Shown here: positions 42,935 through 61,818 of the stretch, piece after piece
Layout of the letters: each line of letters starts with the position of its first letter
Position numbering within the stretch: the stretch's first letter is position 1
Assembly: GCA_963790475.1 (NCBI GenBank)
Contig: CAWBOS010000012.1
Span: 1,440,001 to 1,504,000 of the forward strand
Length of the DNA stretch: 64,000 nt
Direction of reading: 5' to 3'
Source: an uncultured delta proteobacterium
GTDB lineage: Bacteria; Desulfobacterota; RBG-13-43-22
Program-made: the position numbers and the translations under genes
Notes under the pieces: generated by a model
The model's input: only the letters and a program-made list of their open reading frames with translations
The model's database searches: none
Told to the model about the DNA's origin: nothing

Positions 42935-42963
42935 TAGTGTAACAGTAATCCCTTCCCATGGTT

Positions 42964-43068
42964 GTCATTCCGGACTTGATCCGGAATCCAGTCTTTTCAA
43001 CCTGGATTCCTGCTTTCGCGGGACTTGATCCGGAATCCAGTCTTTTCAACCTGGATTCCTGCTTTCGC
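42964..43068 (+). repeat. REP-like palindromic element with internal 49-bp tandem duplication; right arm cut by IS110
   Basis: GTCATTCCGGACTTGATCCGGAATCCAG..CTGGATTCCTGCTTTCGC; 42972-43020 is identical to 43021-43069. Confidence 0.85.
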
Positions 43069-43159
43069 GAGACCTTATGATTGAAAAAGAAAGGCAAGTC
43101 TCGAGTTTTCGGATATAGTCTTTTGTAGCAGCAAAAAACAAACCGAAAGGAGACTTGCC

Positions 43160-44090
43160 ATGGAACATGTTAACAAATTGGATTTTTCGGGTCAATCGAT
43201 TTACGTAGGACTGGATGTCCATAAGAAGAGTTGGACCGTGAGTATTTTTTCGGAACAATGTGAGCATAAGACTTTTACCCAACCTCCGAAAACAGAAAAA
43301 CTGGTCCATTATCTTAAACGCAATTTTCCCGGAGCGGCCTATCAGGCGGTGTATGAGGCCGGCTTCAGCGGCTTTTGGACTCATGATCAGCTTCGGGAGC
43401 AAGGAGTCCATTGTATTGTGGCCAATCCGGCCGATGTTCCGACGACGAATAAAGAACGAACCGGCAAACGGGATCCCAGCGATTCCCGGAAGCTGGCCAG
43501 GAGCCTCCGGAACAGGGAATTGAAGGGGATATACGTACCGGTCCGTTCGAAACGGGAGGATCGCAGCCTGGTTCGAACCCGTCCGAGCATGGTGAGAAAG
43601 CAAACCCGGTGTAAAAATCAAATTAAGGCGCTCCTTTACTTTTATGGGATTAATCTGCCCGAAGAGGTTGTTCCATTATTTTGCTGTCCCGGGAAGCAGA
43701 ATATCGCGAAAGGGTCCGGTTGTTAAAAACGGTCCCATCAGTACCCTGACGGCCATGATTTTCTTGACCGAGCTTGGTGAGTTGGCCCGATTTGCCTCTT
43801 TGGACAAGCTGGCCAGTTATGTCGGACTAATCCCCGATGTCGAATCCACTGGGGAGACCGAACATATAAAAAACTTAACCCATCGGCGAAACCCCCAGTT
43901 AAGGGCTTTGCTCATCGAAGCCGCTTGGGTGGCTGCCCGGAAGGATCCGGTCCTGCTCCTGGCCTTTAATGAATATTGCCAACGGATGAAGAAAACCAGG
44001 GCCATTATTAAAATTGCTCGGAAACTGCTCAACCGCATTCGTTATGTATTAAAGAACCAGGTAGAATATGTTCCTGGGGTAGTTCAATAA
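43160..44090 (+). pseudogene. IS110 recombinase with internal deletion and frameshifts
   Basis: YVGLDVHK, YEAG, KRDPSD in 43160-43726; SYVGLIP..STG, LIEAAW, IARKL in 43644-44090; middle helical part shortened. Confidence 0.88.
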
Positions 44091-44500
44091 TAACTTGAAG
44101 AGGTGCTTCCAATCCGATAAATCGGCTCGTGGGCGTAAACGGTCCGTCATTCCTGCAGCTCATCGGTAGAGGGTGTCTGCTCTTCGCGAGACTCCGTGCC
44201 CACGATTTTAATATAATCAAGATGATGCAGCTATCTGATCCAGATATGTCTGCTGATAGAAGGTTGATTTTAAAGATTGGTTCAGCCCTTAAGTTTGGTT
44301 TCAATTGCTCGACGGATCGGCTTCCGGGCTAATCTCCTGCGGTTAAAAGAGAATAGCCCCAATTGGCCTCTTCATGGATGGCTGCCTGTTTCTATCGCAG
44401 GTAGTTCAGCCTCCTCAGGAGATCATACCGGTAGCCATCCATGAAGAGGTTTATCTTAAAAACCTTAAAAACCATTTAAAAGTCATTCTCTAATAAAAAA
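44091..44500 (+). ncRNA. Putative bridge/seek RNA region of the defective IS1111-group element
   Basis: Stem TCGTGGGC/GCCCACGA encloses target-matching segments; second long hairpin CCTCTTCATGGATGGCT..AGCCATCCATGAAGAGG; boundaries approximate. Confidence 0.55.
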
Positions 44501-44559
44501 GACTTGCTTTTCAACATAGAAGGAAGGATGTGCTGAAATTATCGATTACGGTTTGTAGG

Positions 44560-44661
44560 TTATTACGCTAAGGATCAGCTGCAAAAAAAGCCAGCCAAGA
44601 CACTTCAATTGCAACAAAATCGCACTGGCTTTTTGTGTCAGGCTGAATCCTGTTGTTGGCC
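44560..44661 (-). other. attC-like integron cassette recombination site (degenerate R')
   Basis: Minus strand GGCCAAC-AAC-AGGATTCAGCCTGAC..AAAAAGCCAG / CTGGCTTTTT..GCAGCTGATCCT-TAGC-GTAATAA; long imperfect palindrome with unpaired bases on one arm. Confidence 0.6.
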
Positions 44662-48920: not shown

Positions 48921-49021
48921 AGACATAATGGCTGACAATTAAAAAAGCGACCTGCCCCTTATCGTCGTGGGTTATATTAGGGAGTGATCCCAATACAGAG
49001 CCAAGAATAAGGAGGCAGGTC

Positions 49022-50134
49022 ATGAAACATTTTATCACAGTTGTCGGTATGGATGTACACAAAGATTCCATAGAGATTGTAATCGCCGAAACCACGGGAA
49101 CTGAAGAAGTTCGGCATTACGGAAAAATTAACGGCGACATGGCCTCATTGGACAAAGCAGTCAGAAAACTCAAAAGCACCAGTAGGGAACTGCACTTTGT
49201 CTATGAAGCTGGGCCATGCGGCTATGAGATTTACCGTCACCTATCCTCGCAGGGGTTTACTTGTGTGGTCGTTGCCCCCTCGAAGACTCCCAGACGGAGC
49301 GGCGACCGAGTCAAGAACGACCATCGCGATGCCCAGACACTGGCCCGGCTTTATCGGGCCGGGGAGTTAACCCCGGTCTATGTCCCTCGACCGGACGACG
49401 AAGCCATGAGAGATTTGACCCGCGCCCGGGAAGATGCGGTCAAGGCCTTGCGCACTGCTCGTCAACACTTAGGGGCTTTTCTGCTTCGGTATGGCCATAG
49501 GTACCCCGGTAAAACATCCTGGACGCCTGCTCATAGGCGTTGGCTATCGGACGTCACCATGCCCCACCCCGCCCAGCAGATTACCCTTCAGGAATATATC
49601 CACACGGTAAACGAGGGCACCCTGCGAGTCGGTCGTTTAGTTGACCAGAGTCTGAAGCTGTTGCCCCAATGGAGCCTGGCCCCAGTGGTTGAAGCCCTCC
49701 AGGCCCTCAGAGGGGTGGCTCCTACTGTGGCTATAACCACCGTCTCTGAGATCGGCGATATCACTCGTTTTGAGAACCCCCGGCAGTTCATGGCCTATCT
49801 GGGTCTGGTTCCCTCGGAACACTCCAGCGGCCAGTCCGTCAAACGGGGCAGCATCACCAAAACCGGCAATGGCCACGTAAGGCGCGTTCTCGTTGAAGCG
49901 GCGCATGCTTATAGCTATCCGGCCCGGATAAGCAGGTTTCTGCTCAAACGACAACAGGGACTGCCGCAGCCCATCCGGGAGATCGCCTGGAAGGCCCAGG
50001 TTAGACTCTGCGGCCGGTTCCGTAGGCTTATGGCCCAAGGAAAAATGAAAACCAAAGTGGTAACCGCCATCGCCCGCGAGCTCTCCGGCTTCATATGGGC
50101 GATTGCCAGGGAAGTTCAGTTGCGAAACGTGTAG
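49022..50134 (+). CDS. IS110-family DEDD recombinase/transposase
   Basis: VGMDVHKD, YEAGPCG, KNDHRDA, YLGLVPSEHSSG, ITKTGN, AIAREL; AAGGAGG RBS. Confidence 0.95.
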   Translation: MKHFITVVGMDVHKDSIEIVIAETTGTEEVRHYGKINGDMASLDKAVRKLKSTSRELHFVYEAGPCGYEIYRHLSSQGFTCVVVAPSKTPRRSGDRVKNDHRDAQTLARLYRAGELTPVYVPRPDDEAMRDLTRAREDAVKALRTARQHLGAFLLRYGHRYPGKTSWTPAHRRWLSDVTMPHPAQQITLQEYIHTVNEGTLRVGRLVDQSLKLLPQWSLAPVVEALQALRGVAPTVAITTVSEIGDITRFENPRQFMAYLGLVPSEHSSGQSVKRGSITKTGNGHVRRVLVEAAHAYSYPARISRFLLKRQQGLPQPIREIAWKAQVRLCGRFRRLMAQGKMKTKVVTAIARELSGFIWAIAREVQLRNV

Positions 50135-50190
50135 CCTAGGTCAAAAAACAAACCTTCTTAAAGGAGTATAGAGACCACCCATTATATCCT

Positions 50191-50383
50191 ATCCAGGGGA
50201 CCAGCAGAGACGCGACCCCGTTGGGAGAATCCTCGAGGAATCCAAGGAATAAGGTCATCCGAATTTCCGATCCTAGAGCGAGGCAGCTCCTGTGACGAAG
50301 TCAAGTCAGGCGTTCAAAATACGCGAATATCAGAATGATCAAACGTCGCTAAATCGGTCCCGTCTCTGCTTGTGCCCTGGATT
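50191..50383 (+). ncRNA. Putative bridge/seek RNA of the intact IS1111-group element
   Basis: Closing stem ATCCAGGGGACCAGCAGAGACGCGACC / GGTCCCGTCTCTGCTTGTGCCCTGGAT; contains GGAATCCA (target match) and ATATCAGA (circle-junction match). Confidence 0.65.
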
Positions 50384-50452
50384 AAACTGACAGTCTAACC
50401 CTCTACTAGGGCCAGGAAAAATCTTTTCCTCTTGACAACTGTCAGCCATATC

Positions 50453-50477
50453 GGATTCCCGCCTCCGCGGGAATGAC
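50453..50477 (+). repeat. Right part of the REP-like element
   Basis: GGATTCCCGCCTCCGCGGGAATGAC. Confidence 0.8.
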
Positions 50478-61420: not shown

Positions 61421-61818
61421 TCTCCAGGATAAGTTCAGGGGGAACCTGTTTACTGCTTGGGCGGCATCCGGCATAAAGGTGGCGCGAACCTGATTTAGGC
61501 TCTGGTGTGGAACGTGGGAACCTGTCGTCCCGATGATAAGGGAGAAATTCAAGTGGAGGACCCTACAGGAATGAGAGTACCGATGCGGGGCACAGGGATG
61601 GACCAACTCGTAGTAGTGTTGAAATCTCTGTAATGGGGATGGAGGGAAGGGGTTGGATCATCTGTCCTTGCCTTTTGGTCAACCAACGATGGGAGGAACC
61701 AAGAGGTAAGGAAAGGTCGCCATAAAAGGCAACTGGATGATAGGAGCCGGATGACGGGGAGACTGTCACGTCCGGTTCTGTGAGGGCCTGGGGGTGAAAT
61801 TCCCCCGGGCTACTCGAC
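61421..61818 (+). ncRNA. Group II intron remnant, ORF-less and apparently 5'-truncated
   Basis: DV GAGCCGGATGACGGGGAGACTGTCACGTCCGGTTC (61744-61778), DVI ending CTACTCGAC, upstream GGAACGTGGGAACCTG / CGTAGTAGTG..GAAATCTCTGTAATG motifs; no RT ORF. Confidence 0.88.

Follow-up and report, generated by a model that had tools for sequence, protein, structure and literature searches.

We identified an IS1111-group (IS110 family) insertion sequence at positions 43070-44520 of the window, the whole stretch of 64,000 nucleotides of DNA that was analysed. The element lies within a REP hairpin, and its non-coding DNA is unequally divided, with 430 nt (44091-44520) downstream of the recombinase gene (tnp) compared with 88 nt (43072-43159) upstream. 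The features of the element and its target are listed here; those of the RNA encoded in the 3' region are given below.

42964..43069, + strand: left target, a composite REP (GTCATTCC...GGAATCCAG...CCTGGATTCC...)
43063-43069, + strand: left target half TTTCGCG, 7 nt, matching the last 7 nt of UCUUCGCG at 6/7
43070..43071, + strand: left crossover dinucleotide AG
43072..43159, + strand: left end and 5' untranslated region, 88 nt, from sequence reading
43076-81, + strand: TATGAT, -10 of the predicted junction promoter
43089-43101, + strand: subterminal inverted repeat, left arm GAAAGGCAAGTCT
43093-43102/43150-43159, + strand: hairpin covering the ribosome-binding site
43160..43726, + strand: recombinase 5' fragment, DEDD/RuvC-like domain (PF01548, 54 bits)
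43644..44090, + strand: recombinase 3' fragment, PF02371 domain with GLIPDVESTG (PF02371, 59.9 bits)
44367..44449, + strand: long 3' non-coding hairpin (z = -6.03; 0/200 shuffles equally stable)
44500..44520, + strand: right end, inverted repeat arm AGACTTGCTTTTC (44500-12), then ...AACATAGA
44504-09, + strand: TTGCTT, -35 of the predicted junction promoter, inside AGACTTGCTTTTC
44521..44529, + strand: right crossover dinucleotide AG (44521-22) and right target half GAAGGAT (44523-29), a degenerate REP arm

Element boundaries and insertion site

IS1111 elements are described as having a GL-P----S(t)G motif, a transposase of 330-350 aa, and terminal extensions beyond the subterminal inverted repeats (PMC11187229); for the repeats, the criterion applied here was a length of 7-17 bp with short terminal extensions. 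The arms at 43089-43101 and 44500-44512 are 13 nt long and 92% complementary. By eye, the repeat extends past a gap to TATGATTG / CAACATA, and the left and right terminal extensions beyond this prolonged repeat measure 4-6 nt and 2 nt, respectively. The motif reads GLIPDVESTG in the window ORF 43644-44090 and GLIPDVESSG in the proteins of two sister copies (group B, below). Together the domains, the motif, the non-coding layout and the orientation-specific insertion, in which nothing but the shared crossover bases is duplicated, fit an IS1111-group element in a REP, as the original prediction had proposed.

The target REP contains a 49-bp tandem duplication (42972-43073). Excision of 43069-44520 had been expected to restore the hairpin, and the joined flanks do read ...TTCCTGCTTTCGC|AGGAAGGAT; the uninterrupted form CTGGATTCCTGCTTTCGCAGGAATGAC occurs four times in the genome, which has 195 REP matches overall. 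The placement of the left end at 43069 located the element correctly but not its exact boundary, which lies 1-3 nt further inside. We assign G 43069 to the target on the basis of the family-wide junction pattern, and the spacer between TTGCTT (44504-09) and TATGAT (43076-81) in the joined ends is consequently 17 nt. Both promoter motifs had been recognized, with a spacer of 18 nt that holds only for the earlier ends; sequence reading of the joined form ...CATAGA-AG-ACC... gives the corrected length. The right flank was said to have drifted and has done so, the present AG+GAAGGAT matching the guide-predicted AG+GAATGAC at 7/9 positions. The window's other IS110-family element, at 48930-50464, interrupts a REP of this type between CCT and GGATTCC. 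The two elements thus occupy different positions of one REP family, as had been suggested, with 43070-44520 in the terminal hairpin loop.

The stored contigs of four public runs include none that joins the flanks or the right end to the left end, which is uninformative on excision and empty sites. The contig from the RNA run reached only 42960-43215 (the REP and the left end) and is likewise uninformative on expression.

Recombinase gene and copies in the genome

The recombinase gene is broken, in agreement with the original prediction, and two lesions separate the ORFs 43160-43726 and 43644-44090. The first is a 136-nt deletion after about 43672, beyond which the frame is lost. The second is a 4-nt deletion after 43736 that is shared by the other copy of the same group (group A). 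The two group-B copies encode an intact recombinase of 356 aa, counted from a GTG start, which slightly exceeds the published range. Against NF033542 ('IS110 family RNA-guided transposase', cut-off 140), this intact sister protein reaches 198.8 bits.

The genome carries four full copies and three fragments, all in REPs and in a single orientation; insertion outside REPs, which would have counted against the original prediction, is not seen among these seven. Not all copies lie at TTTCGC|AGGAATGAC, the site that had been put forward for checking: the near-identical copy C12:171500-173087 sits at CTCCGCG|GGAATGAC, from which we conclude that the left guide tolerates mismatches. The group-B copies have the same end sequences and RNA scaffold as group A. 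The right guide is GTCATTCC with flank GGAATGAC in groups A and C, and GTCACCCC with flank GGGGTGAC in group B. In group D the right guide contains an additional C (TCACCCCC) and the flank match is poorer (TGGGGTGAC, 4/9 in fixed register). The left guides contain CGCG, CACU or CGCC; among the left flanks, whose junctions are preserved in groups A and B but not in C and D, that of A ends in CGCG and that of B in CACC. Further matched sets of guides and flanks occur in genomes of the same genus and the same family.

The element may be correctly identified and yet be a dead relic, its loops still intact through recent decay, with nothing active in cis or in trans. We consider this a serious possibility, though we lean somewhat against it. 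The 4-nt frameshift is present in both group-A recombinase genes, to which the window copy adds the 136-nt deletion, and this copy may therefore be inert. Its right flank has two mismatches to the guide, a simple promoter scan inside the element found no promoter-like site on the + strand, and group A has only two copies in 6.3 Mb. However, outside the deletion these two copies differ by five substitutions, two of which fall in the 3' non-coding region (about 99.6% identity), a similarity that points to recent movement, and contigs from other metagenomes carry group-A-like elements that retain the 4 nt and about 138 nt. The two group-B copies supply an intact recombinase with the same ends and scaffold, and in the published work an IS1111 seekRNA functioned from a separate plasmid (PMC11187229). 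Given the two intact sister copies, activity of the group-A RNA in trans is plausible.

A predicted two-loop RNA in the 3' non-coding region

In IS1111 elements, seekRNAs of 70-100 nt are encoded downstream of tnp (Siddiquee et al. 2024, PMC11187229), and IS1111 bridge RNAs are located in the right end (Durrant et al. 2024, PMC11208160). The 3' region of the element described here contains two consecutive stem-loops.

44127..44205, + strand: seekRNA / bridge-RNA stem-loop 1, predicted target-binding loop (covariance model, 72.1 bits, exact coordinates)
44127-44134/44198-44205, + strand: loop 1 outer stem, TCGTGGGC / GCCCACGA
44139-42/44194-97, + strand: loop 1 second stem, ACGG / CCGU
44146..44154, + strand: right-target guide GUCAUUCCU, complementary to top strand AG+GAATGAC
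44155-59/44177-80, + strand: loop 1 inner stem, GCAGC / CUGC
44181..44192, + strand: left-target guide UCUUCGCG (8 nt), then crossover AG, then AC
44215..44269, + strand: stem-loop 2, predicted donor-binding loop
44215-20/44264-69, + strand: loop 2 outer stem, AAUCAA / UUGAUU
44227-31/44250-53, + strand: loop 2 inner stem, GCAGC / CUGC
44256-62, + strand: loop 2 3' side, AUAGA-AG, identical to the element right end plus crossover dinucleotide

The outer stem of loop 1 was proposed from the window sequence, and TCGTGGGC does pair with GCCCACGA. The two segments that had been read as guides within it are both present; their limits required revision. In GTCATTCCTGC (44146-44156), proposed as the right guide, the terminal GC of 'CCTGC' belongs to the conserved inner stem, and in CTGCTCTTCGC (44177-44187), proposed as the match to the left flank, CTGC at 44177-80 is scaffold and the guide starts at 44181. 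The revised guides (44146-54 and 44181-90) overlap in the target on AG, the guide complementary to the top strand being the 5' one. The AC that follows the left guide and its AG equals the first two nucleotides of the element's left end, and UCUUCGCG-AG-AC is identical in sequence to the left junction.

Folded as a single sequence, loop 1 is not exceptionally stable (z = -1.39, with 19/200 shuffles as stable), and in its minimum-energy form part of the left guide is paired with the spacer that precedes the right guide on its 5' side. The consensus fold leaves both guides unpaired on opposite sides of an internal loop, so that the two segments do not pair together; pairing between them would have told against the original reading. 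In an alignment that was fitted to the model and whose related sequences are not independent, 16 of 21 scaffold pairs show compensatory changes on both sides, and pairing holds in 86.0% of cells, compared with 31-45% for slid partners. The covariation score was reached by 0/500 shuffles. A search of the whole window with Rfam at the gathering score returned only a group II intron (61742-61818), and in 44050-44560 there were chance-level matches only (E >= 0.58).

The 3' side of loop 2 tracks the right end of the element in all 45 rows with a recognisable end (AUAGA/CATAGA 30, AUAAA/CATAAA 9, AUAGG/CATAGG 5, AUAAG/CATAAG 1); in six more rows the end was not found. Inspection by eye of the 5' side against the left end ACCTTATG did not reveal a clean, uninterrupted match. 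This side contains GAUGAU here, and the relatives mostly contain AAGGU.

Guides and flanking targets covary

We examined 85 elements of the wider family and found the loop by pattern in 76 of them; relatives occur in MAGs labelled delta proteobacterium, Nitrospirota and Ignavibacteriota. Like the copies in this genome, the related elements elsewhere are inserted in one orientation, between a left half and xG plus a right half. On one conserved 77-nt scaffold there are at least 26 distinct right guides and 32 left guides, together with the insertion sites that correspond to them. Cognate pairs of right guide and junction (62 unique) match at a mean of 7.63/9 positions with 42 pairs at 8 or more, whereas non-cognate pairs (3238) have a mean of 4.94/9 with 4.4% at 8 or more; three registers were allowed for cognate and non-cognate pairs alike. 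Scoring in a fixed register (mean 5.29/9) was set aside, since a one-base shift affects half of the REP insertions and the fixed register therefore under-counts. The left-guide matches are short, at about 5/7 on average, with a mean over 56 pairs of 4.75/7 for cognates compared with 2.89 for non-cognates. The right and the left mean were each reached in 0/2000 label permutations.

The two segments thus vary with the target, both within this genome and across relatives, rather than being constant regardless of it, and this covariation in the sister copies and the wider family upholds the proposal that two opposite-strand guides span the insertion point. It also bears on two other explanations. 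In the first, the guide segments are pieces of REP acquired, for example, by recombination with neighbouring REPs, and no RNA guidance takes place. GTCATTCC is indeed the left arm of the REP palindrome, and REP arms are very frequent in the genome. However, relatives that do not target REPs carry different loop sequences that match their own flanks (26 pairs, cognate 7.15/9 compared with 4.31 non-cognate), an example being AGATTACGC after CATAGA in five copies in one genome. In addition, the segments are set in a scaffold with compensatory base changes, and the AG-AC after the left segment is element, not REP, sequence. We regard such an origin as very improbable.

In the second, the recombinase protein itself recognises the REP hairpin and the 3' non-coding RNA is otherwise employed, for instance in the regulation of expression. 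Every copy in this genome does sit in a structured REP, the subterminal inverted repeats of IS1111 elements are possible protein-binding sites, and the 5' side of loop 2 lacks a clean match to the left end. This explanation seems to us hardly tenable, as guides and flanks covary base by base while the recombinases remain 86-91% identical at the DNA level, many targets in the family are not hairpins, and reprogramming of the RNA redirects IS1111 elements experimentally (PMC11187229).

Crossover dinucleotide and junction asymmetry

The crossover dinucleotide that we assign is xG (AG in the element), which fits 55/59 insertions with both junctions. Cores consisting of a duplicated GA or AGA, or of a single nucleotide, were dropped because they did not fit the uninterrupted REPs and all junctions together. 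At the left junction the dinucleotide is AG in 58/59 unique insertions with both junctions. In half of the REP insertions the target crossover dinucleotide is GG, not AG, and such targets are unpredicted by a strict shared-core model. At GG targets, which represent the ordinary REP form, the AG of the element is kept on the left and the GG of the target on the right in 19/19 unique insertions (eight guide sets); the reverse arrangement (GG left, AG right) does not occur among the 59 insertions with both junctions.

A 2-nt staggered reciprocal exchange should leave a mismatched core, and replication should then yield both arrangements equally. The asymmetry might reflect survival of the information of one strand, or a crossover 5' of the first core base on both strands, an account we offer tentatively and think unlikely on balance. 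Survival of one strand, if true, would mean that one strand is exchanged and the rest is completed by replication or directional repair.

Proposed mechanism

We are highly confident in the reading as a whole: a non-autonomous, decayed IS1111-group element in the terminal hairpin of a REP, with a 3' region that encodes a two-loop guide RNA. In the mechanism that we propose, the element would be excised as a circle with the junction ...CAACATAGA-AG-ACCTTATG..., which would assemble the promoter TTGCTT-17 nt-TATGAT and drive expression of the recombinase gene and the co-transcribed guide RNA behind it. The 5' segment of loop 1 (GUCAUUCCU) would pair with the top strand of AG plus the right target half, and the 3' segment (UCUUCGCG-AG) with the bottom strand of the left target half plus AG. 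The AC beyond the left guide matches the element's own left end, as it would in a handshake with the incoming donor strand. Loop 2 appears to repeat the design of loop 1 for the donor, its 3' side corresponding to the right end and the crossover dinucleotide. The complex of recombinase and RNA would then recombine the circle with a target consisting of a left half (about 7 nt), xG, and a right half (7 nt). As both group-A recombinase genes are frameshifted, present mobility of group A would need the 356-aa group-B recombinase acting with group-A RNA.

Comparison with known systems

The seekRNA / bridge-RNA architecture of IS1111 elements is already published, as is the targeting of REPs (ISPa11), and the state of knowledge is unchanged by the present element: RNA-guided targeting by IS1111 elements, including that of REPs, was shown experimentally in 2024. 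The value lies in a clean natural data set of four retargeted lineages in one genome that follow the sub-families of one REP. For the engineering of IS1111-type recombinases, the data tabulate the guide-target mismatches, wobble pairs and crossover-dinucleotide variants that are tolerated, and the covariance model detects the guide RNA where Rfam yields nothing.

The seekRNA is described as having its match to the top strand 5' of its match to the bottom strand, the two overlapping in the target (PMC11187229). ISPa11, an IS1111-family element of Pseudomonas aeruginosa that targets REPs and has a 96-nt seekRNA (PMC11187229), shares with the element here this order of matches, the DEDD recombinase, the long non-coding region downstream of tnp, and a fixed position and orientation in REPs. 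It differs in host lineage and REP family; the comparison covers these described features. The published structures of ISPa11 and ISPpu10 (PMC11187229, PMC11208160) may show a closely similar scaffold.

As in groups A-D, the stems of ISEc11 and ISXne4 are kept while the target-matching stretches are replaced, and the flanks differ accordingly (PMC11187229). However, the retargeted lineages here coexist in one genome, and rather than having unrelated targets they follow the sub-families of a single REP (GGAATGAC compared with GGGGTGAC arms; CGCG, CACC and CGCC loops).

The bridge RNA of IS621 (PMC11208160; PMC11208158) also consists of a target loop and a donor loop, each of which reads both strands around a 2-nt core, with extra 'handshake' bases. 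In contrast to the published account of IS621, the RNA here is in the right end, not the left, and the strand-specific guides come in the opposite order. Handshake-like bases are found after the bottom-strand guides (AG-AC; AG-G) instead of after those for the top strand. The core is AG/xG where IS621 has CT, and the subterminal inverted repeats are long.

ISPpu9 and ISPpu10, IS110-family elements of Pseudomonas putida, resemble the present element in targeting REPs or BIMEs (PMC12288879). ISPpu9 is described there as having no junction promoter and as producing the extra small RNAs Asr9 and Ssr9, whereas the joined ends of the element here read TTGCTT-17-TATGAT.

The element, its copies and the recombinase gene

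The IS1111-group (IS110 family) element at 43070-44520 interrupts a REP hairpin, and its flanks (read from 43069-44520) are ...CCTGGATTCCTGCTTTCGC on the left and AGGAAGGAT on the right. As the original prediction held, removing the element restores the hairpin, whose uninterrupted form (CTGGATTCCTGCTTTCGCAGGAATGAC) occurs four times in the genome. The broken recombinase gene is represented by two overlapping reading frames:

43160-43726, reading frame 1, match to the DEDD transposase domain (PF01548)
43644-44090, reading frame 2, match to PF02371

A genome search identified a near-identical second copy (C12:171500-173087; five substitutions, about 99.6%) that is 136 nt longer than the window copy, two copies at 86-91% identity (C13:478883-480472 and C1:240097-241686), and three fragments besides the full copies. 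We refer to the first pair, including the window copy, as group A and to the second as group B. Alignment of the copies shows that the window copy is without 136 nt after about 43672, and that both group-A copies, compared with group B, are missing 4 nt after 43736. These losses limit the longest group-A frame to 241 aa. In group B the frame is uninterrupted in both copies, and its 356-aa product scores 198.8 bits, against a cut-off of 140, on NCBIfam NF033542 ('IS110 family RNA-guided transposase'). Group-A-like elements in which the 4 nt and about 138 nt are present were found on contigs from other metagenomes.

Two further hairpins occur within the element. The left arm of the subterminal repeat (GGCAAGTCTC, 43093-43102) forms a perfect 10-bp pairing with GAGACTTGCC (43150-43159), which overlaps the ribosome-binding site immediately 5' of the ATG at 43160. 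Distant relatives show this arrangement too, and it has the look of a brake on recombinase translation. The second, in the 3' non-coding region (44367-44449), has 23-bp arms and is much stabler than shuffled sequences (z = -6.03); in a diverged copy on contig C15 the sequence differs and the pairing is kept (CCTTGGTATGGATGACTGCC / GGCAGTCATCCATACCAAGG). There are also short derivatives, resembling miniature RNA-only passengers, that retain the two RNA loops together with the right end and are without about 220 nt of non-coding sequence, the recombinase gene, or both:

G000 C13:444758-445044, short derivative in this genome
locus L016/L040, short derivative
joint 44280 to 44501, short derivative on a contig of metagenome run X1

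The REP target

The last hairpin of the REP (CTGGAYYCC-N4-16-GGRRKGAC) has 195 matches in the genome. The form split by the other group-A copy (...CCCGCCTCCGCGGGAATGAC) occurs nine times and that split by group B (...CCCCGGTTTTCACCGGGGTGAC) seven times. All copies lie in a single orientation in the loop-proximal part of this hairpin.

The neighbourhood is a mobile-element cluster. An intact 459-aa DDE transposase (PF13701, PF01609; 41436-42815, minus strand) is the immediate left neighbour of the REP. Rfam also matches a group II intron catalytic domain (RF00029, 58 bits) at 61742-61818 (plus strand). Another IS110-family element (48930-50464; 401-aa frame, three identical genome copies) is likewise inserted in a REP of this family, at another position (between CCT and GGATTCC). 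Outside the REP, its flank and that of the group-A copy at C12:171500 are nearly identical over more than 100 bp. Just left of the element under study, a 49-bp REP unit is tandemly duplicated (42972-43073; 2.1 copies, 98% match). The novel joint, TTTCGCG|GGACTTGATCC, consists of the left target half followed by xG-AC..TTGAT and resembles the element's left junction, TTTCGCG|AGACCTTATGAT; the recombinase may have produced the duplication incidentally, by acting on a pseudo-end.

Two RNA segments covary with the flanks

The 3' non-coding region contains the segments GTCATTCCTGC and CTGCTCTTCGCGAGAC in group A, and GTCACCCCTGC and CTGCTCTTCACTAGAC in group B. The right flank is GGAATGAC in the copy at C12:171500, AGGAAGGAT in the window copy and AGGGGTGAC in group B; the left junctions are ...TTTCGCG-AGACC and ...CTCCGCG-AGACC in group A and ...TTTCACC-AGACC in group B. 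From A to B, a TT-to-CC change in the first segment pairs with an AA-to-GG change in the right flank, and a G-to-A change in the second is mirrored by the identical change in the left flank. A group-B guide U opposite a bottom-strand G is a wobble pair. Two of the fragments are further lineages with a left guide ending in CGCC: in one the right guide GTCATTCC adjoins GGAATGAC, and in the other TCACCCCC, with one extra C, adjoins TGGGGTGAC, a poorer match. Related sequence is present in 10 of 61 genomes searched around this one, and the copies there add matched guide/flank sets (for example, GTCATTCT with AGAATGAC). A group-A-like element in contigs of metagenome run X2 is a further natural guide variant, with T for G at 44188, the last left-guide position, together with four other changes in loop 1 (44127-44205).

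Searching genome contigs with the group-B protein yielded 79 loci at 54-87% identity, from metagenome-assembled genomes labelled delta proteobacterium, Nitrospirota, Ignavibacteriota, Bacteroidota and others. Together with six elements from this genome, 85 were examined, and 76 fit a simple pattern for the loop frame, GTGGG...[9 nt]-GCAG...CUGC-[5-11 nt]-AGAC...CCCAC. The bracketed stretches are highly variable and match each element's own flanks, as with AGATTACGC immediately 3' of CATAGA in five copies of one genome, or AGTAATCAA 3' of CATAGA in a second example. Element ends were located independently from conserved end motifs, and three registers were allowed equally for cognate and non-cognate comparisons. 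On the right, the 62 unique guide/junction pairs agree on average at 7.63 of 9 positions (42 at 8 or more), against 4.94 for 3238 non-cognate pairs (4.4% at 8 or more); on the left, 56 unique pairs average 4.75 of 7 against 2.89, all with misses counted, several of which come from mislocated ends (about 7 right junctions). None of 2000 shuffles of guide labels reached the observed mean on either side. Guides that are not REP-like give 7.15 against 4.31 when taken alone (26 pairs).

The guide scaffold

When ten close copies are folded to a consensus, the two guide segments (right-target, 44146-44154; left-target with its AG-AC, 44181-44192) face each other across an internal loop. This loop is closed on one side by the 44127-34/44198-205 stem with ACGG/CCGU, and on the other by an inner stem, GCAGC/CUGC, bearing a small hairpin. 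The original prediction had counted CTGC, and the GC after GTCATTCCT, as guide; these belong to the invariant inner stem. A covariance model trained on 48 distinct loops found 58 matches in the 60 loci supplied and exactly six places in this genome, the window match being 44127-44205 (loop 1). In the model-fitted alignment, both partners vary in 16 of 21 scaffold pairs. Paired cells make up 86.0%, compared with 31-45% after shifting partners by 1-3 columns, and the covariation score was reached by 0 of 500 shuffles. These figures are supportive rather than exact, as the alignment is biased towards the model and its sequences are related to one another. The single-sequence fold of loop 1 is not unusually stable (z = -1.39), and in its minimum-energy form part of the left guide pairs with the spacer. 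The second stem covaries in relatives (ACGG/CCGU, CGC/GCG, UCGU/ACGA), which favours the consensus fold. No Rfam family matches the element's guide RNA.

A second loop, 44215-44269, repeats this design with an outer stem AAUCAA/UUGAUU and an inner stem GCAGC...CUGC. Its 3' side, UGAUAGA-AG-G, tracks the right end of the element across 51 distinct rows (right end not located in 6): AUAGA with CATAGA in 30, AUAAA with CATAAA in 9, AUAGG with CATAGG in 5 and AUAAG with CATAAG in 1. AG always follows the end-matching stretch. This tracking, followed by AG, identifies loop 2 as the probable donor-reading loop. The 5' side of loop 2 gave no continuous match to the left end.

The crossover

AG terminates both bottom-strand guides. 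Among 59 unique insertions with both junctions, the left junction is AG-ACC in 58, and the right junction, after ...CATA[GA][AG], is AG in 37, GG in 19, AA in 2 and unreadable in one. On the simplest reading, a donor ...CATAGA-AG-ACCTT... would recombine with a target left half-xG-right half to give left half-AG-element-xG-right half; within the window, 43063-69 would then be the left target half, AG would lie at both 43070-71 and 44521-22, and 44523-29 would be the right half. So placed, the two guide footprints would share the crossover dinucleotide, in agreement with published IS1111 seekRNAs (PMC11187229). Excising AGACC...CATAGA gives an exact ordinary REP for the other group-A copy and two relatives; thus the elements also enter targets with G as the first core base. 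GG at the right junction accompanies AG at the left in 19 of 19 cases, from 8 guide sets and in REP targets. The reverse arrangement was not found among the 59 insertions, which come from loci L039-L117 and this genome; a truncated copy in this genome, C12:755202-755481, has GG at its left junction.

The TTGCTT/TATGAT pair originally noted at the joined ends stands, with a spacer of 17 nt under the revised boundary rather than 18. One sub-family has TTGACT as its -35 at unchanged spacing. The element is predicted to form a circle whose joined ends would make a promoter, from which the guide RNA may be transcribed.

Comparison with known systems

The original observation is confirmed with small corrections to the boundaries and the left-guide extent. 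Its reading as two opposite-strand guides is supported by their covariation with the flanks; the AG-left/GG-right asymmetry lies outside that explanation. The suggestion that group A could be active in trans is reasonable, because the two groups have their ends and scaffold in common, the group-B recombinase is intact, and an ISEc11 seekRNA supplied from a separate plasmid is described as working (PMC11187229). Against it, the window right flank fits the guide at only 7 of 9 positions, and the same source describes excision as requiring donor flanks that match the RNA.

All IS1111-group features testable here are present: two protein domains, the GL-P----S(t)G motif, a long downstream non-coding region, subterminal inverted repeats and orientation-specific insertion. 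The group-B protein has 356 aa; the published range is 330-350 aa. The position and size of the RNA, and the order of its strand matches, agree with those described for the IS1111 seekRNA in PMC11187229, and its location agrees with the right-end placement reported for IS1111 bridge RNAs (PMC11208160). ISPa11 is a published case of a seekRNA-carrying IS1111 element that targets REPs (PMC11187229), and an AG crossover in REPs has been published for ISPpu9 (PMC12288879). In contrast to IS621 as described in PMC11208158, the strand order is reversed, and the extra 'handshake-like' bases follow the bottom-strand guides here and the top-strand guides in IS621. The element is a clear further IS1111-type case of an already known mechanism.
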